In this document: positions 4,432 to 29,122 of the stretch, in pieces
How positions within the stretch are numbered: position 1 is the first letter of the stretch
Layout of the letters: the number at the start of each line of letters is the position of its first letter
From: Escherichia coli
GTDB taxonomy: Bacteria > Pseudomonadota > Gammaproteobacteria > Enterobacterales > Enterobacteriaceae
DNA: 64,000 bases
NCBI RefSeq assembly: GCF_050920415.1
Contig: NZ_CP169309.1
Strand: one strand, 5' to 3'
Program-made: the position numbers and the translations under genes
The notes under the pieces: model-generated
The model's input: only the letters and a program-made list of their open reading frames with translations
The model's database searches: none
What the model was told of the DNA's origin: nothing

Positions 4432-5928
4432 ATGGCTCACCCTCATTTATTAGCGGAAAGAATTTCCCGCCTGAGCAGTTCGTTGGAAAAGGGGCTTTAT
4501 GAACGTAGCCACGCCATCCGCTTGTGTTTATTAGCGGCATTAAGTGGTGAAAGTGTGTTCCTCCTTGGCCCGCCAGGCATTGCCAAAAGTTTGATCGCCC
4601 GGCGCTTAAAATTCGCCTTTCAGAATGCCCGTGCGTTTGAATATCTGATGACCCGCTTCTCCACGCCGGAAGAAGTTTTTGGTCCCCTTTCCATTCAGGC
4701 GCTAAAAGATGAAGGGCGCTATGAACGTTTAACCAGCGGTTACCTGCCAGAAGCAGAAATCGTCTTTCTGGATGAGATCTGGAAAGCGGGCCCGGCAATT
4801 CTTAATACCTTGCTCACCGCCATTAACGAGCGCCAGTTCCGCAACGGTGCACACGTAGAAAAAATCCCGATGCGTCTGCTGGTGGCGGCCTCCAACGAGC
4901 TGCCGGAAGCAGACAGCAGTCTGGAAGCGTTATATGACCGCATGCTGATTCGTCTGTGGTTAGATAAAGTGCAGGATAAAGCGAATTTCCGCTCCATGCT
5001 GACCAGTCAACAGGATGAAAATGACAATCCGGTTCCTGCCTCCTTGCAGGTCACTGATGAAGAATATGAACGCTGGCAGAAAGAGATTGGTGAAATTACG
5101 CTGCCCGATCATGTATTTGAGCTGATTTTTATGCTGCGCCAGCAACTGGATAAATTACCGGATGCGCCTTATGTCTCGGATCGTCGCTGGAAAAAAGCGA
5201 TCCGCTTATTGCAGGCCAGCGCCTTTTTTAGCGGTCGCAGTGCTGTTGCCCCGGTAGATCTCATTTTGCTGAAAGATTGCCTGTGGTATGACGCGCAAAG
5301 CCTGAATTTGATACAACAACAAATTGATGTATTGATGACCGGTCATGCCTGGCAACAGCAAGGGATGTTGACCCGCCTGGGCGCGATTGTGCAACGTCAC
5401 CTGCAACTACAGCAGCAACAAAGCGATAAAACAGCCTTAACGGTAATTCGTCTGGGCGGCATTTTCAGCCGTCGTCAGCAGTATCAACTCCCTGTTAACA
5501 TTACTGCTTCCACTCTGACTCTGCTGCTGCAAAAACCGTTAAAACTGCATGATATGGAAGTGGTTCATATCTCCTTTGAGCGTAGCGCGCTGGAACAGTG
5601 GCTGAGCAGAGGTGGTGAAATTCGCGGCAAACTGAACGGTATCGGCTTTGCCCAGAAACTGAATCTGGAAGTTGATAGCGCCCAACATCTTGTCGTACGC
5701 GATGTAAGTTTACAAGGCAGTACGCTGGCACTTCCCGGTTCATCGGCTGAAGGTCTGCCAGGTGAAATAAAACAACAACTGGAAGAGCTTGAAAGCGACT
5801 GGCGCAAGCAACACGCTTTATTCAGCGAACAGCAAAAATGTCTGTTTATCCCTGGCGACTGGTTAGGTCGCATTGAAGCCAGCCTACAGGATGTCGGCAC
5901 CCAGATTCGCCAGGCACAACAATGCTAA
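4432..5928 (+). CDS. ravA: AAA+ MoxR-family ATPase RavA
   Basis: Walker A GPPGIAKS; recalled protein starts [14 protein letters not shown], 8 codons inside tracked ORF 4408..5928; overlaps viaA start as in the ravA-viaA operon. Confidence 0.9.
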
Positions 5929-7373
5929 CGCTGGATACGCTTAATGTGATGCTGGCCGTCAGCGAAGAGGGATTGATCGAAGAGATGATCATCGCGCTGC
6001 TGGCCTCACCGCAGCTGGCAGTCTTCTTTGAAAAATTCCCACGACTGAAGGCGGCAATCACTGATGATGTTCCCCGCTGGCGTGAGGCGCTGCGCAGTCG
6101 GCTGAAAGATGCCCGAGTCCCGCCGGAACTCACCGAAGAGGTGATGTGCTATCAGGAAAGCCAGCTCCTCTCCACGCCGCAGTTTATTGTGCAGCTACCA
6201 CAGATCCTGGACTTACTGCATCGTCTGAATTCCCCATGGGCAGAACAAGCCCGACAGTTGGTTGATGCTAACAGCACGATCACTTCAGCGTTACACACAC
6301 TTTTTCTCCAGCGTTGGCGTTTAAGTCTGATCGTGCAAGCAACGACGTTAAATCAACAGCTATTAGAAGAAGAACGCGAACAACTGTTGAGTGAAGTTCA
6401 GGAACGCATGACGCTGAGCGGGCAACTTGAACCGATTCTCGCAGATAATAATACCGCAGCTGGTCGTCTGTGGGATATGAGCGCCGGTCAGCTTAAACGT
6501 GGCGACTATCAGTTGATTGTGAAATACGGTGAATTTCTTAACGAACAGCCGGAACTGAAACGACTGGCAGACCAACTGGGGCGTTCCCGGGAAGCCAAAT
6601 CGATACCCCGTAACGATGCGCAGATGGAAACCTTCCGTACCATGGTGCGCGAACCGGCGACCGTTCCTGAGCAGGTTGATGGACTGCAACAAAGCGACGA
6701 TATTTTACGCCTTCTACCACCGGAATTGGCGACGCTGGGGATAACGGAACTGGAATATGAGTTTTATCGTCGGCTGGTGGAAAAACAATTGCTCACCTAT
6801 CGCCTTCACGGTGAGTCGTGGCGTGAAAAAGTTATCGAACGCCCGGTAGTTCATAAAGATTACGACGAACAGCCGCGCGGACCGTTTATTGTCTGCGTGG
6901 ATACTTCCGGCTCAATGGGCGGCTTTAATGAACAGTGTGCGAAAGCGTTCTGTCTGGCATTGATGCGCATAGCCCTCGCTGAAAATCGTCGCTGCTTTAT
7001 TATGTTATTTTCCACCGAGATCGTCCGTTATGAGCTTTCAGGCCCACAAGGCATCGAACAAGCAATCCGTTTTTTAAGCCAGCAGTTTCGTGGCGGTACC
7101 GATCTTGCCAGTTGTTTCCGCGCCATTATGGAACGCTTGCAAAGTCGGGAGTGGTTTGACGCCGATGCGGTGGTGATTTCTGATTTTATCGCCCAGCGGT
7201 TGCCTGACGACGTGACGAGCAAAGTGAAAGAGTTGCAGCGGGTACATCAGCATCGCTTTCATGCCGTGGCGATGTCGGCACATGGCAAACCCGGCATCAT
7301 GCGCATTTTCGATCATATCTGGCGCTTTGATACCGGGATGCGAAGCCGCCTGCTCAGACGCTGGCGGCGATAA
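5922..7373 (+). CDS. viaA: VWA-domain protein ViaA (RavA partner)
   Basis: 483 aa ORF overlapping ravA stop by 7 nt; C-terminal von Willebrand A-like region (VCVDTSGSM). Confidence 0.9.
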
Positions 7374-7377
7374 ACAA

Positions 7378-8370
7378 TTACAGCAGAGAAGGGACGCTCT
7401 CGCGAACAGCTGCCGGCCATACACCACACTGAACCTGGCCGATATGTGGCAGTTGCAGCAGCAGCATGGTCAAACGAGACTGCCCGATACCGCCGCCGAT
7501 GGTCTGCGGCATTTCACCGCGCAGCAGCGCCTGATGCCACTCCAGCTGCAGACGATCTTCATCACCGGTCAGCGCCAGCTGATGTTTCAACGTATCGGCA
7601 TCCACGCGGATCCCCATGGAAGAAAGCTCAAACGCATCTTCCAGTACCGGGTTCCATACCAGAATATCGCCGTTCAGACCCGCATGGCCCAGCTCTGACG
7701 GGGTGCTCCAGTCATCATAATCCGGTGCGCGCACGTCGTGACGATGACCATCACTCAACTTGCCGCCAATCCCGACGAGGAATACAGCGCCAAGATCTTT
7801 CGCAATCGCCCGCTCACGTCCTTTGGCATCGAGATCCGGATAACGAGCCAGTAACTCCTGGCTGTGTACGAAGTGGATCTGATCCGGCAGGAACGGTGCC
7901 AGGCCAAACTCTTCGCTAACTGCAGCTTCGGTTGCTTTAATTCCCGCCCAGATCGCCTCTACCGTGCTTTTCAGAGTCGAGAATTGACGCTCGCCGTCGC
8001 CCATTACGCGCTCCCAGTCCCACTGGTCTACATAGATCGAGTGCAGCGGGGAAAGACGGTCTTCATCGGGGCGAAGGGCTTTCATGTGCGTGTATAGCCC
8101 TTCGCCCGCGCTGAAGTCATGTTGCCCTAAGGTCTGACGTTTCCACTTCGCCAGTGAATGAACCACTTCGAACTGGGCATCAGGCAGAGCTTTCACTTTT
8201 ACCTGCACCGCTTTTTCACAGCCCGACAAGTTATCCTGCGTGCCATCCCCCACACGGCTAAGAATCGGCGCCTGGACTTCGATCAGCCCCAGACGTTCTT
8301 CCAGTTGACGAGAAAAGTGAGATTTCACGAAGCTAATTTGACGTTGTTTGGCAATGTAAGCGGTTTTCAT
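7378..8370 (-). CDS. asnA: Aspartate-ammonia ligase (asparagine synthetase A)
   Basis: 330 aa [53 protein letters not shown]; divergent from asnC. Confidence 0.95.
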
Positions 8371-19972: not shown

Positions 19973-19993
19973 CACCGGCTTGAAAAGCTCAAA

Positions 19994-20023
19994 AGCCAGT
20001 CTGGAAACAGACTGGCTTTTTTA
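19994..20023 (+). terminator. Rho-independent terminator of the atp operon
   Basis: Stem AGCCAGTCTG / CAGACTGGCT with GAAA loop followed by a T-tract. Confidence 0.8.
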
Positions 20024-20168
20024 TATGTATTTTGCTGATTGATACAAAAATTATATTATTCATCAAAAAGTTAGCGTCTTGTTAAGTCGTTAATTGTCAC
20101 CTTTTCTCCATAGTGATATCGTCCCTGTTGTTATTATTATTTCTATAATTATATGAGGGATCATATCT

Positions 20169-20867
20169 ATGTCTTTTAAAACGTCTTTTGAAGGTGTCCA
20201 ACCGGTTGTGATGACCGATCGCGCCACCTTTATCCGCCGTGCTTATATGCATCTGGCTGGGGCAGTTGTCGGGTTCATCATTCTCAGCGCGCTGTTTATC
20301 TTTAGTGGGCTTGGCAAAATGATGCTTAGGGTGCTGATGAACAGTGGTCAGTTTGGTTGGCTGGTGGTGCTGGGTGCTTTTATTCTGGTCAGCATGCTGG
20401 CGACTCGTCTGGCAGATAATGTGGAGTCTAATCAGACCCAACTGATTGGACTGGGGATATACGTACTGGCAGAAGCGTTAATTTTTGCACCTTTACTGAC
20501 ACTGGCAGCGTATATTAATCCAGCAATTATTGGCGCGGCGGGCATCACCACAGCACTGCTTGTGGGGGGTCTGACATTCACTGCCTTCACGACCAAAAAA
20601 GATTTCTCTTTCATGCGTTCGTTTTTAACCATGGCGGGCTTTATCGCTTTCGGTGCCATTATCGCGAGCATTTTTATGGGATTCTCACTGGGCGTCTGGT
20701 TCTCGGCGGCAATGGTGCTGTTGTGTGCTGGCTTCGTGCTGTACGACACGTCTAATATTATTCATCATTATCCTACCGATCGTCCGGCAGGCGCGGCGCT
20801 ACATCTCTTCGCCTCTATCGCTACCATGTTCTGGTATGTTCTGCGCATTTTCATGTCCCGCGATTAA
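20169..20867 (+). CDS. BI-1/YccA-family (Bax inhibitor-1-like) inner membrane protein
   Basis: 232 aa with about 7 predicted TM helices and a charged C-terminal tail; preceded by a very AT-rich promoter region; located between atpC and glmU, which I recall as adjacent in K-12. Confidence 0.6.
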   Translation: MSFKTSFEGVQPVVMTDRATFIRRAYMHLAGAVVGFIILSALFIFSGLGKMMLRVLMNSGQFGWLVVLGAFILVSMLATRLADNVESNQTQLIGLGIYVLAEALIFAPLLTLAAYINPAIIGAAGITTALLVGGLTFTAFTTKKDFSFMRSFLTMAGFIAFGAIIASIFMGFSLGVWFSAAMVLLCAGFVLYDTSNIIHHYPTDRPAGAALHLFASIATMFWYVLRIFMSRD

Positions 20868-20880
20868 CCCTGCTTGTATA

Positions 20881-20907
20881 AACCAGCGAAATTATTCGCT
20901 GGTTTTC
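20881..20907 (+). terminator. Rho-independent terminator after the BI-1-family gene
   Basis: ACCAGCGAA-ATT-ATTCGCTGGT hairpin followed by TTTTCCCGTTTATTT. Confidence 0.7.
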
Positions 20908-21142
20908 CCGTTTATTTATTGATCGAAATAAGAGCAAAAACATCCACCTGACGCTTAAATGAAGGTACTGCCTTAATTTTCTGCAGACAAAAGGCGTGAC
21001 GATGGTCGAAAATGGCACTTTCGTCAGCGGGGATAATCCGTTATTGAACAATTTATCCTCTGTCCATTTCACGATGAAAAAAATGTAGTTTTTTCAAGGT
21101 GAAGCGGTTTAAATTCGTTCTCAAATTACAGTCAGGACGCGT

Positions 21143-22513
21143 ATGTTGAATAATGCTATGAGCGTAGTGATCCTTGCCGCAGGTAAAGGCACGCGCATGT
21201 ATTCCGATCTTCCGAAAGTGCTGCATACCCTTGCCGGGAAAGCGATGGTTCAGCATGTCATTGATGCTGCGAATGAATTAGGCGCAGCGGACGTTCACCT
21301 GGTGTACGGTCACGGCGGCGATCTGCTTAAACAGGCGCTGAAAGACGATAACCTGAACTGGGTGCTTCAGGCAGAACAGCTGGGTACGGGCCATGCAATG
21401 CAGCAAGCCGCACCTTTTTTTGCCGATGACGAAGACATTTTAATGCTCTACGGCGACGTGCCGCTGATCTCTGTTGAAACACTCCAGCGCCTGCGTGATG
21501 CGAAACCGCAGGGTGGCATTGGTCTGCTGACGGTTAAACTGGATGATCCGACCGGTTATGGACGTATCACCCGTGAAAACGGCAAAGTTACCGGCATTGT
21601 TGAGCACAAAGATGCCACCGACGAGCAGCGTCAGATTCAGGAGATCAACACCGGCATTCTGATCGCCAACGGCGCAGATATGAAACGCTGGCTGGCTAAA
21701 CTGACCAACAATAACGCGCAGGGCGAATACTACATCACCGATATTATTGCGCTGGCGTATCAGGAAGGACGTGAAATTGTTGCCGTTCATCCGCAACGTT
21801 TAAGCGAAGTAGAAGGCGTGAATAACCGCCTGCAACTCTCGCGTCTGGAGCGTGTTTATCAATCCGAACAAGCTGAAAAACTGCTGTTAGCAGGCGTTAT
21901 GCTGCGCGATCCGGCGCGTTTTGATCTGCGCGGTACGCTTACTCACGGGCGCGATGTTGAAATTGATACTAACGTTATCATCGAGGGCAACGTGACTCTC
22001 GGTAATCGCGTGAAAATCGGCACCGGTTGCGTGATTAAAAACAGCGTGATTGGCGATGATTGCGAAATTAGCCCGTATACCGTTGTGGAAGATGCGAATC
22101 TGGCAGCGGCCTGTACCATTGGCCCGTTTGCCCGTCTGCGTCCTGGTGCTGAGTTGCTGGAAGGCGCACACGTCGGTAACTTCGTTGAGATGAAAAAAGC
22201 GCGTCTGGGTAAAGGCTCGAAAGCCGGTCATCTGACTTACCTGGGGGATGCGGAAATTGGCGATAACGTCAACATCGGCGCAGGAACCATTACCTGCAAC
22301 TACGATGGTGCGAATAAATTTAAAACCATTATTGGCGACGATGTGTTTGTTGGATCCGATACTCAGCTGGTGGCCCCGGTAACGGTAGGCAAAGGCGCAA
22401 CCATTGCTGCGGGTACAACTGTGACGCGTAATGTTGGCGAAAATGCTCTGGCAATCAGCCGTGTGCCGCAGTCGCAAAAAGAAGGCTGGCGTCGTCCGGT
22501 AAAGAAAAAGTAA
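21143..22513 (+). CDS. glmU: Bifunctional GlcNAc-1-P uridyltransferase / GlcN-1-P acetyltransferase
   Basis: 456 aa; N-terminal nucleotidyltransferase motif LAAGKGTRM and C-terminal hexapeptide repeats. Confidence 0.95.
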
Positions 22514-22674
22514 TTCTGGCTGGGTAATCCGGCCATATGGGGTGAGGAGATAACATAATCTCCCGCCCACAAGCAGTAACTATAAAAATAACCCCACTCT
22601 CTACAAAGGCTCGGGGCGCCCGAAAAACGGGCATACAGGTTGACCGACAACGATATAAATCGGAATCAAAAACT

Positions 22675-24504
22675 ATGTGTGGAATTGTTGGCGCGATCGC
22701 GCAACGTGATGTAGCAGAAATCCTTCTTGAAGGTTTACGTCGTCTGGAATACCGCGGATATGACTCTGCCGGTCTGGCGGTTGTAGATGCAGAAGGTCAT
22801 ATGACCCGCCTGCGTCGCCTCGGTAAAGTCCAGATGCTGGCCCAGGCAGCGGAAGAACATCCTCTGCATGGCGGCACCGGGATTGCTCACACTCGCTGGG
22901 CGACGCACGGCGAACCTTCAGAAGTGAATGCGCATCCGCATGTTTCTGAACACATTGTGGTGGTGCATAACGGCATCATCGAAAACCATGAACCGCTGCG
23001 TGAAGCGTTAAAAGCACGTGGCTATACCTTTGTTTCTGAAACCGACACCGAAGTGATTGCACACCTGGTGAACTGGGAACTGAAACAAGGCGGTACTCTG
23101 CGTGAGGCTGTTCTGCGTGCTATTCCGCAACTGCGCGGCGCGTACGGTACGGTAATTATGGACTCCCGTCACCCGGATACCCTGCTGGCGGCTCGTTCTG
23201 GTAGCCCGCTGGTGATTGGCCTGGGCATGGGCGAAAACTTTATTGCTTCTGACCAGTTGGCGCTGTTGCCAGTGACCCGTCGCTTTATCTTCCTTGAAGA
23301 AGGCGATATTGCGGAAATCACTCGCCGTTCGGTAAACATCTTCGATAAAACTGGCGCGGAAGTGAAACGTCAGGATATCGAATCCAATCTGCAATATGAC
23401 GCGGGCGATAAAGGTATTTACCGCCACTACATGCAGAAAGAGATCTACGAACAGCCGAACGCGATCAAAAATACCCTTACCGGGCGCATCAGCCACGGTC
23501 AGGTTGATTTGAGCGAGCTGGGACCGAACGCCGACGAACTGCTGTCGAAGGTTGAGCATATTCAGATCCTCGCCTGTGGTACTTCTTACAACTCCGGTAT
23601 GGTTTCCCGCTACTGGTTTGAAGCGCTGGCAGGTATTCCGTGCGATGTTGAAATCGCCTCTGAATTCCGCTATCGCAAATCAGCCGTGCGTCGTAACAGC
23701 CTGATGATCACTCTGTCGCAGTCCGGTGAAACCGCGGATACCCTGGCGGGTCTGCGTCTGTCAAAAGAATTGGGTTACCTTGGATCGCTGGCAATCTGTA
23801 ACGTTCCTGGCTCTTCGCTGGTACGTGAATCCGATTTGGCGCTGATGACCAATGCGGGTACGGAAATTGGCGTGGCGTCCACCAAAGCATTCACCACTCA
23901 GTTAACCGTGTTGTTGATGCTGGTGGCGAAGCTGTCTCGCCTGAAAGGTCTCGATGCCTCCATTGAGCATGATATCGTGCATGGTCTGCAGGCGTTACCG
24001 AGCCGTATTGAGCAGATGCTGTCTCAGGACAAACGCATTGAAGCTCTGGCAGAAGATTTCTCTGACAAACACCACGCGCTGTTCCTGGGCCGTGGCGATC
24101 AGTACCCAATCGCGCTGGAAGGCGCATTGAAGCTGAAAGAGATCTCTTATATTCATGCGGAAGCCTACGCAGCAGGCGAACTGAAACACGGTCCGCTGGC
24201 GCTGATTGACGCGGATATGCCGGTTATCGTCGTCGCACCGAACAACGAATTGCTGGAAAAACTGAAATCCAACATTGAAGAAGTTCGCGCGCGTGGCGGT
24301 CAGTTGTATGTCTTTGCCGATCAGGATGCTGGTTTTGTGAGCAGTGATAACATGCACATCATCGAGATGCCACATGTAGAAGAGGTGATTGCACCGATCT
24401 TCTACACCGTTCCTCTGCAGTTGCTGGCCTATCACGTTGCTCTGATTAAGGGCACTGACGTTGACCAGCCACGTAATCTGGCAAAATCGGTAACGGTTGA
24501 GTAA
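22675..24504 (+). CDS. glmS: Glutamine--fructose-6-phosphate aminotransferase
   Basis: 609 aa, N-terminal MCGIVGA glutaminase motif and SIS domains; hairpin plus T-tract at about 24521..24552 downstream. Confidence 0.97.
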
Positions 24505-24809: not shown

Positions 24810-25382
24810 ATGAAACGTAATATTATTGGCGGTGCAATTACGCTGGCATCTTTAATGTTAGCCGGAAATGCACTTGCAGAAGATGGCGTTGTTCACTTTG
24901 TCGGTGAAATTGTCGATAGCACATGCGAAGTGACTTCCGATACCGCCGATCAAACAGTACCTCTTGGTAAGGTCAGTAAAAGTGCGTTTTCAGGAGTAGG
25001 CAGCCTGGCGTCACCACAGCAATTTAGTATTAAACTGGAAAATTGCCCAGCAACCTATACTCAGGCAGCCGTCCGTTTCGATGGTACTGAAGCACCTGGC
25101 GGAGACGGTGACCTGAAAGTGGGTACACCGCTGACATCGGGTACACCTGGCGATTTTACCGGTACAGGGCAAGCGATTGCGGCAACCGGCGTCGGTATTC
25201 GTATTTTTAACCGGGCGGATAATTCTCAGGTTAAACTTTATAACGACTCTGCTTATAGCACAATCGACGCTGACGGTAAGGCTGAAATGAAGTTTATTGC
25301 ACGCTATGTTGCTACCAATACGACCGTAACGGCGGGTACAGCAAACGCGGATTCACAATTCACCGTCGAATATAAGAAATAA
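24810..25382 (+). CDS. lpfA: Fimbrial major subunit (long polar fimbria-like)
   Basis: 190 aa with signal peptide and conserved Cys pair; first gene of a chaperone-usher cluster between glmS and pstS, the position I recall for the lpf2-type operon in O157-like strains. Symbol assigned by position, not by sequence search. Confidence 0.55.
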   Translation: MKRNIIGGAITLASLMLAGNALAEDGVVHFVGEIVDSTCEVTSDTADQTVPLGKVSKSAFSGVGSLASPQQFSIKLENCPATYTQAAVRFDGTEAPGGDGDLKVGTPLTSGTPGDFTGTGQAIAATGVGIRIFNRADNSQVKLYNDSAYSTIDADGKAEMKFIARYVATNTTVTAGTANADSQFTVEYKK

Positions 25383-25429
25383 TTAATACAGGGCCTTTTT
25401 ATTCAGTTGGCTTTGGCCAGGGAGTCGTT

Positions 25430-26161
25430 ATGTCCAGAAAAAGTTGTTTAATCAGGCTCTTTAAAACAACAATTTCGTGTAATTTATTGAGGATTATTAT
25501 TCTAAGCATCTTTTTCCTCCAGCCGACATTGACCTGTGCAGGTGTTGTCATTGGCGGTACACGGGTTGTTTATTTGAGTAATAATGCTGATAAATCTATT
25601 TCTGTATTTAGTAAGGAAGAAAAAATTCCTTATCTCATCCAGGCATGGGTGGATCCGTTTAATAAAGATGATAAAACTAAAGCGCCATTTATTGTTATTC
25701 CTCCGGTATCACGGTTAGAACCCGCGCAAGAAAAAATATTACGTATTGTCCATACTAAAGGTTTGTCATTACCAGAGGATCGAGAGTCTGTCTTCTGGCT
25801 AAATATCAAAAATATTCCACCCTCTGCGAGCAGCAAAGAAGCGAACTCGCTGGAAATCGCCGTTAAAACGCGAATTAAGCTGTTCTGGAGACCGGCATCT
25901 ATCCGCATGATTCCCGAAGATGCCGCACCAAAGGTGAAGTGGCATCGGGAAGGCCGAAATCTTATTGCTGAGAACCCTAACCCGATTCATATCAGCGTGA
26001 TGGATGTCATTGTTGATGGCCATGATGTACCTCTTAACATGATCCGCCCTTTCGAGACGCTCACGTTACCGTTGCCTGCTAATTCTTCGGGTAGCCAAAT
26101 GACCTGGCGATTTATTAATGATTACGGCGCGATAAGCGAACCATTAAAGCAAGCGTTGTAA
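25430..26161 (+). CDS. lpfB: Periplasmic fimbrial chaperone (PapD-like)
   Basis: 243 aa with signal peptide; second gene of the cluster. Confidence 0.6.
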   Translation: MSRKSCLIRLFKTTISCNLLRIIILSIFFLQPTLTCAGVVIGGTRVVYLSNNADKSISVFSKEEKIPYLIQAWVDPFNKDDKTKAPFIVIPPVSRLEPAQEKILRIVHTKGLSLPEDRESVFWLNIKNIPPSASSKEANSLEIAVKTRIKLFWRPASIRMIPEDAAPKVKWHREGRNLIAENPNPIHISVMDVIVDGHDVPLNMIRPFETLTLPLPANSSGSQMTWRFINDYGAISEPLKQAL

Positions 26162-27893
26162 GCATTGCATAAGGATAGGCGAATTATGGTTACGACCAGA
26201 ATAGCGGTTGGTCTGACGGCAGGGACATGTCTCGTTTTCTCGCAAAGCCTGATGGCCGAGGTCAGCGTATTTAATCCGGCGCTGCTGGAAATAGACCATC
26301 AATCCGGAGTCGATATTCGCCAGTTTAACAAAGCGAATCACATACCTCCCGGCGCCTACAGTGTTGATATTTTTATCAATGGCAAAATGTTCGAGCGTCA
26401 GGATGTCACTTTTGTTCAGGATAACCCTGATGCCGATCTGCACGCCTGCTTTGTCGCGATTAAAAAAAAGCTGACTTCCTTTGGTGTAAAAGTTGACGCG
26501 CTGAAATCGCTCAATAAGGTGGATGACAATGCCTGTATTGACCCTGCACCACGCATTGAAGGCTCAACCTGGCAACTGGACGGCGATAAGCTGCAACTGA
26601 ATATCACCATTCCCCAGATCTATATGGATGCGATGGCTTACGATTACATAAGCCCCACGCGTTGGGATGAGGGAATTAACGCACTGACTATCAACTACGA
26701 TTTTTCCGGTTCACATACTCTGCGCTCGGATTACAACTCACAGGAGACCGATACCAGTTATCTCAACCTGCGTAACGGACTCAATATTGGGCCGTGGCGA
26801 CTCCGCAATTACAGCACCTTGAACACCACCGATGGTCGTGCGGAATACAACTCTATCAGTACCTGGATACAACGTGATATTGCTGCGTTAAGAAGCCAGA
26901 TTATGATTGGCGATACGTGGACGGCGAGCGATATTTTCGACAGCACGCAAATCCGTGGTGCACGACTTTATACTGATAAAGATATGTTACCCGCCAGCCA
27001 GAATGGCTTTGCGCCTGTGGTTCGTGGGATTGCAAAATCCAACGCCACCGTCATCATTCGACAGAACGGCTACGTAATTTATCAGTCAGCCGTGCCACAA
27101 GGTGCCTTTGAAATCACCGACCTCAATACTGCCAGCTCAGGCGGCGACCTGGACGTGACTATCAAGGAAGAAGATGGTAGTGAACAACGATTCACCCAGC
27201 CTTATGCGTCGCTGGCAATCCTCAAACGTGAAGGTCAGACCGATGTAGATGTTAGCGTGGGGGAGCTGCGCGATGAAGATGGTTTTACTCCTGACGTGCT
27301 TCAGGCACAGATCCTTCATGGCTTGCCCCACGGTTTTACCTTGTATGGTGGCGTACAGGCTGCTGAAAAGTATGGTTCTGTTGCTTTGGGGGTAGGTAAA
27401 GATCTCGGTTCTCTGGGAGCCATCTCTTTAGATGCGACACATGCCAGAGCGAAATTTGCAGATGATGATACGGAAACGGGTCAGTCATATCGTTTTCTGT
27501 ATTCAAAACGTTTTGACGATACAGACACCAGCTTACGCCTGGTTGGCTATCGTTACTCCACCGAAGGCTACTATACCCTCAATGAATGGGCATCCCGGCA
27601 AAATAGTCCAGAAGATTTCTGGCAAACCGGAAACCGTCGCAGCCGTGTGGAAGGAACGTTAACGCAATCGCTGGGCAGAGATTATGGCAACTTATACCTG
27701 ACATTAAGCCGCCAGCAATATTGGCACACAGATGATGTCGAACGATTAATCCAATTTGGTTACAGCAGTAGCTGGAAGCGACTCTCGTGGAACGTCTCGT
27801 GGAGTTATTCCAATACGGCCCGGCAAGGGACGAGTAATAGTTATGCCAGTGATAACACCAGCGAACAAATCTACATGCTCTCTGGATTTGCCC

Positions 27894-28799
27894 CTATATT
27901 TCCAGACATCTGTTATCACTTAACCCATTACAAGCCCGCTGCCGCAGATATTCCCGTGGCGAGCGATAACCCAGCGCACTATGCGGATGCCATTCGTTAT
28001 AATGCTCGAACGCCTCTGCAAGGTTCTTTGCTGCCGTTAACCCGTCTGGTTTGGGCATGATACTGATGTAGTCACGCTTTATCGTTTTCACGAAGCTCTC
28101 TGCTATTCCGTTACTCTCCGGACTCCGCACCGCCGTGTTCTTCGGTTCAAGTCCCAACATCCGGGCGAACTGGCGTGTTTCATTAGCCCGGTAGCATGAA
28201 CCATTATCCGTCAGCCACTCCACTGGAGACGACGGAAGATCGTTGCCGAAGCGGCGTTCCACCGCTCCCAGCATGACGTCCTGTACTGTTTCACTGTTGA
28301 AGCCGCCAGTAGTCACCGCCCAGTGCAGTGCCTCACGATCACAGCAGTCCAGCGCGAACGTGACACGCAGTCTCTCTCCGTTATCACAGCAGAACTCGAA
28401 CCCGTCAGAGCACCATCGCTGATTGCTTTCTTTCACGGCCACTCTGCCTGTATGTGCCCGTTTCGATGGCGGTACAGCAGGTTTTCGCTCAAGCAACAGC
28501 GCATTCTGGCGCATGATCCGGTAAACACGTTTGGCATTGATTGCAGGCATACCATCAAGTTCTGCCTGTCTGCGAAGCAGCGCCCATACCCGACGATAAC
28601 CATACGTGGGCAGCTCTCCGATAACATGGTGTATACGGAGAAGCACATCCGTATCATCAGTGTGACGACTGCGGCGGCCATCCATCCAGTCATCGGTTCG
28701 TCTGAGAATGACGTGCAACTGCGCACGCGACACCCGGAGACAACGGCTGACTAAGCTTACTCCCCATCCCCGGGCAATAAGGGCGCGTGCGCTATCCAC
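27894..28799 (-). CDS. insD: IS2 transposase OrfB (InsD)
   Basis: 301 aa ORF inside IS2, DDE integrase-core fold. Confidence 0.9.
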
Positions 28800-29122
28800 T
28801 TTTTTGCCCGTCCATATTCAACGGCTTCTTTGAGGAGTTCATTTTCCATCGTTTTCTTGCCGAGCAGGCGCTGGAGTTCTTTAATCTGCTTCATGGCGGC
28901 AGCAAGTTCAGAGGCAGGAACAACCTGTTCTCCGGCGGCGACAGCAGTAAGACTTCCTTCCTGGTATTGCTTACGCCAGAGAAATAACTGGCTGGCTGCT
29001 ACACCATGTTGCCGGGCAACGAGGGAGACCGTCATCCCCGGTTCAAAGCTCTGCTGAACAATTGCGATCTTTTCCTGTGTGGTACGCCGTCTGCGTTTCT
29101 CCGGCCCTAAGACATCAATCAT
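28757..29122 (-). CDS. insC: IS2 transposase OrfA (InsC)
   Basis: 121 aa HTH protein starting [13 protein letters not shown]; overlaps insD in the -1 frame. Confidence 0.9.

Follow-up and report, generated by a model that had tools for sequence, protein, structure and literature searches.

The gene at 20169–20867, which lies between atpC and glmU and encodes a YccA-like membrane protein, is probably an old resident of this site that was lost in most E. coli and has been moved between lineages by homologous recombination. The window, that is, the whole stretch of DNA analysed, comprises 64,000 nucleotides of Escherichia coli contig NZ_CP169309.1 (assembly GCF_050920415.1). The original prediction, made from the letters of the window, had described the gene as a single-gene insertion with its own expression signals. 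The features of the locus are as follows.

19991–20020, plus strand: intrinsic terminator hairpin of atpC (atp operon), with a U-run behind its 13-bp stem (–21.5 kcal/mol, z = –6.5).
20023–20168, plus strand: AT-rich 5′ region of the BI-1-like gene with promoter-like hexamers and a Shine-Dalgarno sequence.
20094–20122, plus strand: promoter-like hexamers TTGTCA-17-TATCGT with TG, from a consensus scan.
20113–20140, plus strand: second pair of promoter-like hexamers, from the same type of scan.
20155–20159, plus strand: Shine-Dalgarno sequence GAGGG of the BI-1-like gene, 9 nt before the ATG.
20169–20867, plus strand: coding sequence of the BI-1-like gene, ATG start, 232 aa; inner-membrane protein of the Bax1-I/TMBIM superfamily, YccA-like 'TSN' branch (RefSeq WP_000008757.1).
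20828–20930, plus strand: stretch that three gene-less E. coli genomes retain in decayed form, covering the final 13 codons, the in-frame stop codon and the terminator.
20880–20905, no strand assigned: hairpin after the BI-1-like gene, a perfect 11-bp inverted repeat and putative terminator.
20902–21059, minus strand: enterobacterial sRNA STnc410, matched over the full length of Rfam model RF02060 with 186.6 bits (gathering score 50; E = 9e-44).

The open reading frame starts 196 nt past the atpC stop codon (19972), and the start codon of glmU (21143) follows 275 nt past its end. GC content falls to 0.30–0.35 over 19975–20199, compared to about 0.5 within the coding sequence. Four sigma-70-like hexamers were found, a count not above the chance expectation of 2.3 ± 1.7, and the hexamers alone are therefore no evidence of a promoter. 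The hairpin at 20880–20905 begins thirteen nt 3′ of the stop codon. Folded on the plus strand, where UUUUCCCGUUUAU comes next, it reaches –15.3 kcal/mol (z = –5.5); the minus-strand version, which abuts the 3′ end of STnc410, is calculated at –16.7 kcal/mol, and on neither strand was a shuffle equally stable. We consider this hairpin the likely terminator of the BI-1-like gene. The expression signals that had been claimed for the gene, namely the AT-rich 5′ region and the hairpin, were both found, along with the GAGGG Shine-Dalgarno sequence, and 20169–20867 probably forms a transcription unit of its own, functional and comprising one gene, that encodes a seven-helix inner-membrane protein. 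E. coli strain MFDS1022581 proved to be 100% identical over the window, and PGAP has annotated the gene there as "Bax inhibitor-1/YccA family protein" (WP_000008757.1).

A survey of 5426 complete E. coli genomes, 5424 of which matched the flanks, revealed the BI-1-like gene in only six, at 99.3–100% identity. As stated in the original prediction for K-12, atpC and glmU are adjacent in a K-12-like lab strain, where a 352-bp spacer separates them; we also checked whether the gene might occur in K-12 and most E. coli after all, and nearly all E. coli were found to be without it. Homology to the K-12 type stops at 20022 and resumes at 20902. In place of window positions 20023 to about 20868–20901, K-12-type strains carry a filler of 57–61 nt, so that the indel is of the replacement type and not a clean insertion. 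According to the alignment, the core of the 20880–20905 hairpin is deleted in these strains. The K-12-type filler contains a collinear 14-nt match to the sequence just past the stop codon of the BI-1-like gene (CCTGCTgaTATAAA). Local alignments of the filler to the gene body gave p = 0.1–0.4 against shuffles, and comparison with six other alleles yielded two conflicting weak candidates (p = 0.03–0.05, uncorrected). When end-anchored alignments were chained, the R32 variant of the filler was matched by 6–9 of 1000 shuffles (p = 0.006–0.009), this being one variant out of nine tests, and neither the K-12 nor the MS21 variant reached significance. Since no robust homology to the gene body was obtained, we do not claim that the K-12-type filler descends from the BI-1-like gene.

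The indel contains a single ORF. No direct or inverted repeat pairs position 20023 with 20868–20905, the only long inverted repeats being the two terminators, and no target-site duplication, terminal inverted repeat, integrase or transposase was found at the indel. The protein matched no PHROG or PADLOC family, no copy of the gene was found on plasmids, and the only two 'phage' records that match both resemble bacterial Salmonella DNA. The statement that no mobility signature is visible was thus borne out at every level inspected (repeats, ORFs, PHROG, PADLOC and plasmids). The missing signature would be explained if the alleles moved by homologous recombination within the atp and glmU flanks, which are nearly identical.

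Comparison with related genera revealed the order atpC, BI-1-like gene, glmU, with the same orientation and a length of 232 aa, in E. fergusonii, E. albertii, some Salmonella enterica, two Superficieibacter species and Pseudocitrobacter faecalis. The E. fergusonii ortholog (the variant so named by NCBI) was checked in three complete chromosomes and shares 99–100% protein identity with the window protein; 596 blocks of the assembly collection list it. For this species, the gene's frequency was taken from protein-database counts. The corresponding protein identities, each for an ortholog situated between atpC and glmU, are 89% for E. albertii, 81–84% for the two Superficieibacter species, 78% for Salmonella enterica (several chromosomes) and 75% for Pseudocitrobacter faecalis. 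All of these orthologs, which are labelled either 'Bax inhibitor-1/YccA family protein' or 'permease', agree with the window gene in slot, orientation and length, and no structural difference was apparent. Salmonella displays a presence/absence polymorphism at the very same atpC–glmU site. Beyond the Enterobacteriaceae, the closest relatives occur in Chitinimonas, Chromobacteriaceae and Rhodanobacteraceae (57–66% identity), in unrelated contexts and with no adjoining atp genes. Inspection of 80 loci of other phyla yielded no universal partner gene; there were only lineage-local neighbours, each at nine loci at most.

Traces of the gene were also detected within gene-less E. coli. In strains 100416, 14EC033 and CUWW06, a remnant follows straight after the atpC terminator (81.6% identity, E = 1e-17), and its Smith-Waterman score of 37 compares with a maximum of 16 among 1000 shuffles. 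As this remnant is 17–18% diverged from the E. fergusonii-type and E. albertii alleles alike, it must be old. The shared slot in relatives together with the 3′ remnant in gene-less E. coli therefore indicates an old resident that was lost from most E. coli, and in all likelihood the BI-1-like gene is an old syntenic gene and not an insertion. A genuine recent insertion, in which a foreign single-gene cassette would have entered by illegitimate recombination or with an unseen mobile element, might seem the obvious reading of a gene that is missing from 99.9% of E. coli and preceded by an AT-rich 5′ region, and the 57–66% identity to the nearest relatives outside the Enterobacteriaceae would permit an ancient horizontal origin of the whole enterobacterial clade. 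Nevertheless, we regard such a recent event as extremely improbable: the slot is occupied in at least five other enterobacterial taxa with divergence rising with phylogenetic distance, the 11–25% protein divergence among taxa argues against recent imports of one cassette, gene-less E. coli retain a remnant, the indel is a replacement, and the locus offers no target duplication, terminal inverted repeat, integrase, transposase or plasmid copy, with bacterial-looking DNA behind the 'phage' matches. From the proposed single-gene insertion, the extra, rare gene absent from K-12 was thus upheld, while insertion as the direction of the change is contradicted or unproven in view of the occupied slot in relatives, the remnant and the replacement-type indel.

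Divergence estimates showed how the present E. coli copy might have arisen. Relative to the window, dS of the BI-1-like gene amounted to 0.06 for E. fergusonii (glmU, 0.12–0.14), 0.77 for E. albertii (glmU, 0.44) and 1.44 for Superficieibacter (glmU, 1.05), and was saturated for Salmonella. Allele divergence follows species divergence for E. albertii, Superficieibacter and Salmonella, and the E. fergusonii allele is far too close; the dS ratio of the gene to glmU is 1.75 for E. albertii versus 0.45 for E. fergusonii. A dS of only 0.06 implies that the ancestor of the E. coli and E. fergusonii alleles is much younger than the split of the two species, and the excessive closeness indicates later exchange. 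The dN/dS ratio of the gene (0.03–0.08) points to strong purifying selection wherever it is kept. Among themselves, the E. coli carriers exhibit 0–3 coding differences and 0–2 differences in the 146 nt of the 5′ region, whereas they are separated from E. fergusonii at 11–12 coding positions out of 699 and at 12 upstream positions out of 146. The E. coli carriers hence form an allele clade of their own, and none of the sampled E. fergusonii strains is the direct donor.

Two assemblies bearing the label E. albertii supplied direct proof that the atpC–glmU locus is exchanged between species. In both, the atp operon is of the E. albertii type (32–44 differences in 5801 bp from native E. albertii), whereas the gene, its 5′ region, the 3′ flank and glmU are of the E. 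fergusonii type. In the gene itself, 5–7 of 699 coding positions differ from the E. fergusonii type versus 117–118 from native E. albertii. The flanks of the window are less easily read. Between E. coli and E. fergusonii the atp operon is 99.2–99.6% identical (23–47 differences in 5804 bp), and the divergence of glmU and glmS within E. coli equals that between the two species; a local molecular clock is therefore unreliable. The glmU–glmS haplotype of the window is rare, with about 18 genomes at least 98.6% identical and all others at 96.0% or below, and it is equally far from K-12 and from E. fergusonii. In twelve of these roughly 18 genomes the gene is missing, and the common filler stands in its place. 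Recombination breakpoints could not be placed firmly from SNP patterns, as the flanks are too conserved and mosaic.

We propose that the gene was an old occupant of the atpC–glmU slot in the Escherichia/Salmonella/Superficieibacter/Pseudocitrobacter part of the Enterobacteriaceae and that it would have been deleted in the main E. coli lineage, leaving a 3′ remnant in a few strains and the 57–61-nt filler in all others. About 0.1% of E. coli have an intact copy, which would then share its allele lineage with the E. fergusonii gene, and presence and absence alleles would pass between strains and species via homologous recombination on the conserved flanks formed by atp and glmU. That the gene was re-acquired from the E. 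fergusonii lineage is, on balance, slightly more likely than not. The main competitor is unbroken vertical retention, according to which a minority E. coli haplotype kept the gene since the ancestor shared with E. fergusonii, as a long-lived polymorphism with no re-import. It would account for the separate allele of the E. coli carriers and its neutral-looking divergence of 6–8% (5′ region, 12/146; dS, 0.06), for a flanking atp operon just as alike between the two species, and for the occurrence of the carriers in a rare, distinct glmUS haplotype group. However, the dS of 0.06 falls well under the value that vertical descent predicts from E. albertii (ratio to glmU 0.45 as opposed to 1.75), the old remnant, 17–18% diverged, shows that an E. 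coli copy was destroyed long ago, most genomes of the same haplotype (12 of about 18) are without the gene and have the common filler, and replacement between species has been seen directly at this locus in E. albertii. We thus consider unbroken retention unlikely and favour re-introduction from an E. fergusonii-like donor, which we judge about twice as likely, the direction of transfer being unproven.

Taken alone, the case is of little importance and forms an unsurprising instance of gene flow among Escherichia species. It does correct a natural misreading, since rarity and absence from K-12 do not by themselves mark a gene as inserted. The locus would provide a small, clean example of a core-like gene that was lost from a species and yet persists in, or returns to, about 0.1% of it purely by homologous recombination with a sister species.

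For the encoded protein, assignment to the Bax1-I family by HMM succeeded over the full length. The Pfam profile PF01027 matched with 114.2 bits against a cutoff of 34.1 (E = 9e-33), aligning residues 20–228 to profile positions 2–207 of 207. An AlphaFold model (mean pLDDT 89.4, pTM 0.85) displayed seven long membrane helices and an N-terminal helix. A Foldseek search of the PDB with this model returned only BsYetJ chains at E ≤ 1e-3 (TM 0.67–0.79, rmsd 3.2–3.9 Å, 18–20% identity). Sequence searches of the PDB with the protein alone and with a 26-sequence profile gave no match even at E ≤ 10, so that structure prediction and Foldseek were needed to establish the fold link. We are confident, on this basis, that the protein is a seven-helix member of the Bax1-I/TMBIM superfamily. 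A score of 30.1 bits on the YccA equivalog HMM (NCBIfam NF007765), the cutoff of which is 353, in turn excluded identity as a YccA ortholog; the sequence used for comparison, which we take to be E. coli YccA, scored 454 bits on the same HMM. The description as a BI-1/YccA-family seven-helix membrane protein therefore holds for the family and the fold and fails for YccA orthology.

An alignment of 26 close relatives revealed the subfamily signature YDTSNIIHHYPxDRPAGAALHLFAS. Although no ortholog, the protein is related to YccA by BLASTP (35% identity over the C-terminal 95 residues, E = 4e-10), which gave the best match among the paralogs tested, and its C-terminal motif LYDTSNIIHH parallels LFETSNIIHG of YccA. 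For alignment to YetJ we used the B. subtilis sequence, which was verified to be identical to that of PDB 4PGR. Both hhalign and MAFFT placed D193 opposite YetJ D171, S216 opposite D195 and T219 opposite N198. S216 is invariant in the 26 close relatives. Among 73 wider relatives, the position equivalent to D195 holds Ser in 42, Ala in 14, Thr in seven and Asp in five, and hence Ser, Ala or Thr in 63; the D171-equivalent is variable (Q, D, Y, S, E or T) and the TS dipeptide nearly invariant. As the D195 position is occupied by the invariant S216, the di-aspartyl pH sensor is incomplete. The TSNIIH motif and the serine in place of the second aspartate, both of which are common to YccA, place the protein in a YccA-like branch of the superfamily. 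The resemblance to E. coli YccA thus comprises membership in the Bax1-I superfamily, similar size, the (Y/F)(D/E)TSNIIH motif and the serine at the BsYetJ D195 position. In contrast, the N-terminal half and the cytoplasmic tail are unrelated to those of YccA, and the subfamily of the window protein has an invariant YPxDRPAGAALHLFAS block of its own. The subfamily is uncharacterised, whereas the gene itself is already annotated in RefSeq and the superfamily is known; a literature search retrieved no paper naming WP_000008757. Our results flag a widespread, uncharacterised YccA-like subfamily of TMBIM proteins that lacks the canonical pH sensor and is subject to strong purifying selection.

FtsH engagement needs a cytoplasmic N-terminal tail of about 20 residues. 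In the AlphaFold model, residues 1–15 are disordered (pLDDT below 50) and a helix begins at residue 15. FtsH is bound and inhibited by YccA (PMC9379554). By analogy, the window protein could act like YccA, modulating the FtsH/HflKC protease from within the membrane as a partner or slow substrate. We offer this mechanism as a tentative guess at the level of the family, and the stress role suggested in the original prediction is a guess of the same kind. Some cation-leak activity may be possible as well, and a canonical di-aspartyl pH gate would be unlikely.

A canonical pH-gated Ca2+ leak channel of the TMBIM/BI-1 type, working like BsYetJ, was weighed as an alternative function. B. subtilis YetJ (BsYetJ; PDB 4PGR, 4PGW, 6NQ7-9), on whose structure the TMBIM/BI-1 prototype rests, is a Ca2+ leak channel sensitive to pH, and it shares with the window protein the seven-helix fold and the aspartate at D193/D171. 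TMBIM proteins conduct Ca2+, and the di-aspartyl pH sensor defines the mechanism of YetJ, BI-1 and TMBIM5 (PMC9379554). BsYetJ lacks a match at the sequence level even by profile, however, and the sensor differs: D195 is replaced by S216 and N198 by T219, and the partner position is an invariant serine in 26 of 26 close relatives and Ser, Ala or Thr in 63 of the 73 wider ones. Moreover, the D171-equivalent is itself variable among the wider relatives, and the arginine that latches D171 in YetJ is without a conserved counterpart, R80 not being invariant. A BsYetJ-like channel is, accordingly, a quite unlikely function for this protein, and the FtsH-modulator guess is preferred.

A further parallel concerns the mitochondrial TMBIM5, which exchanges Ca2+ for H+ and both binds and inhibits the m-AAA protease AFG3L2, a homologue of FtsH (PMC9379554). 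In TMBIM5, a membrane protein of the TMBIM family provides a link between an FtsH-type protease and ion or proton-motive-force status (PMC9379554), and the window gene directly follows the ATP synthase operon; the parallel is one of analogy only, and TMBIM5, unlike the window protein, retains and needs the di-aspartyl motif (PMC9379554). On this model, the gene might encode a regulator that is associated with the ATP synthase operon and maintained by selection, and that would connect proton-motive-force or ion status to FtsH-dependent membrane-protein quality control in the manner of TMBIM5, with a His212/Ser216 sensor replacing the di-aspartyl one. We rate this idea as speculative and very unlikely. 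If it were true, the loss from E. coli and the occasional re-import from E. fergusonii would reflect niche-specific selection, and an as yet uncharacterised functional class of TMBIM proteins in bacteria would be defined by the invariant DRPAGAALHLFAS block. For functional work of any kind, the natural presence/absence strains of E. coli and E. fergusonii represent handy material.

As a side observation, the sRNA STnc410, which is barely documented in the literature, is a neighbour of the BI-1-like gene in the conserved spacer upstream of glmU. It lies outside the indel and is also present in the gene-less strains.

Comparison with 5426 complete E. coli genomes placed the glmU–glmS segment of the window, which follows the BI-1-like gene encoding a YccA-like membrane protein, in a rare haplotype. 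This segment and the further features considered here are located as follows (window coordinates):

20053–20065 and 20755–20767: two copies of the exact 13-nt direct repeat ATATTATTCATCA
20902–21059, minus strand: STnc410, an enterobacterial sRNA (full-length Rfam match, 186.6 bits, E = 9e-44)
21143–24504: glmU–glmS, rare E. coli haplotype
24810–29791: lpf-O113 long polar fimbria operon (lpfA–D), inserted between glmS and pstS
35045–38878: decayed-looking islet 3′ of phoU

An identity of at least 98.6% to the glmU–glmS segment was found in only about 18 of the 5426 genomes, while the remaining genomes did not exceed 96.0%. Since the haplotype is rare and its dS compared to K-12 (glmS 0.28) equals in size that compared to E. 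fergusonii, sequence divergence suggests that the essential glmUS operon either is deeply dimorphic or lies within a segment imported long ago.

Replacement at the atpC–glmU locus was clear in two assemblies labelled E. albertii (L104 and L105). Both joined an atp operon of the E. albertii type to a BI-1-like gene, 5′ region, 3′ flank and glmU of the E. fergusonii type (locus coordinates 5805–8345), demonstrating an interspecies replacement via homologous recombination. Furthermore, Salmonella chromosomes were compared according to presence (L097, L100, L102) or absence (L098, L099, L101, L103, L008) of the gene. The two groups diverged by about 10% in glmU and about 2.5% across the atp genes, and the spacer common to both differed by about 26%, which is far above the expectation inside one subspecies; they may represent either different subspecies or two deep haplotypes.

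The hairpin 3′ of the BI-1-like gene adjoins the 3′ end of STnc410. In folding it was equally stable on both strands and may therefore serve as a bidirectional terminator. Its core is missing by deletion in K-12-type strains, so that the 3′ end of STnc410 may differ between carriers and non-carriers of the BI-1-like gene. The copies of ATATTATTCATCA lie 702 nt apart, the first in the 5′ region and the second within the BI-1-like coding sequence (NIIHH codons), and could constitute a deletion substrate; a deletion between them did not correspond to the fillers, the short sequences observed in place of the gene region in gene-less strains.

The BI-1-like gene, whole or partial, also occurred in two records of the 'phages' collection, a 515-kb Salmonella Infantis contig (AFYI01000003.1) and the 2.1-kb 'Salmonella phage S.Kent 1-2-1' (OR851318.1), both of which look like bacterial DNA entered as phage. 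Annotation of the Infantis contig divides the gene into two hypothetical proteins, so that it may be disrupted there. Elsewhere in the window, the lpf-O113 operon is lacking in the K-12-like strain and the E. fergusonii loci. In the segment downstream of phoU, which has the appearance of a decayed islet, a frameshifted IS2 transposase adjoins small hypothetical ORFs and a type III effector pseudogene that lacks its N-terminal part.
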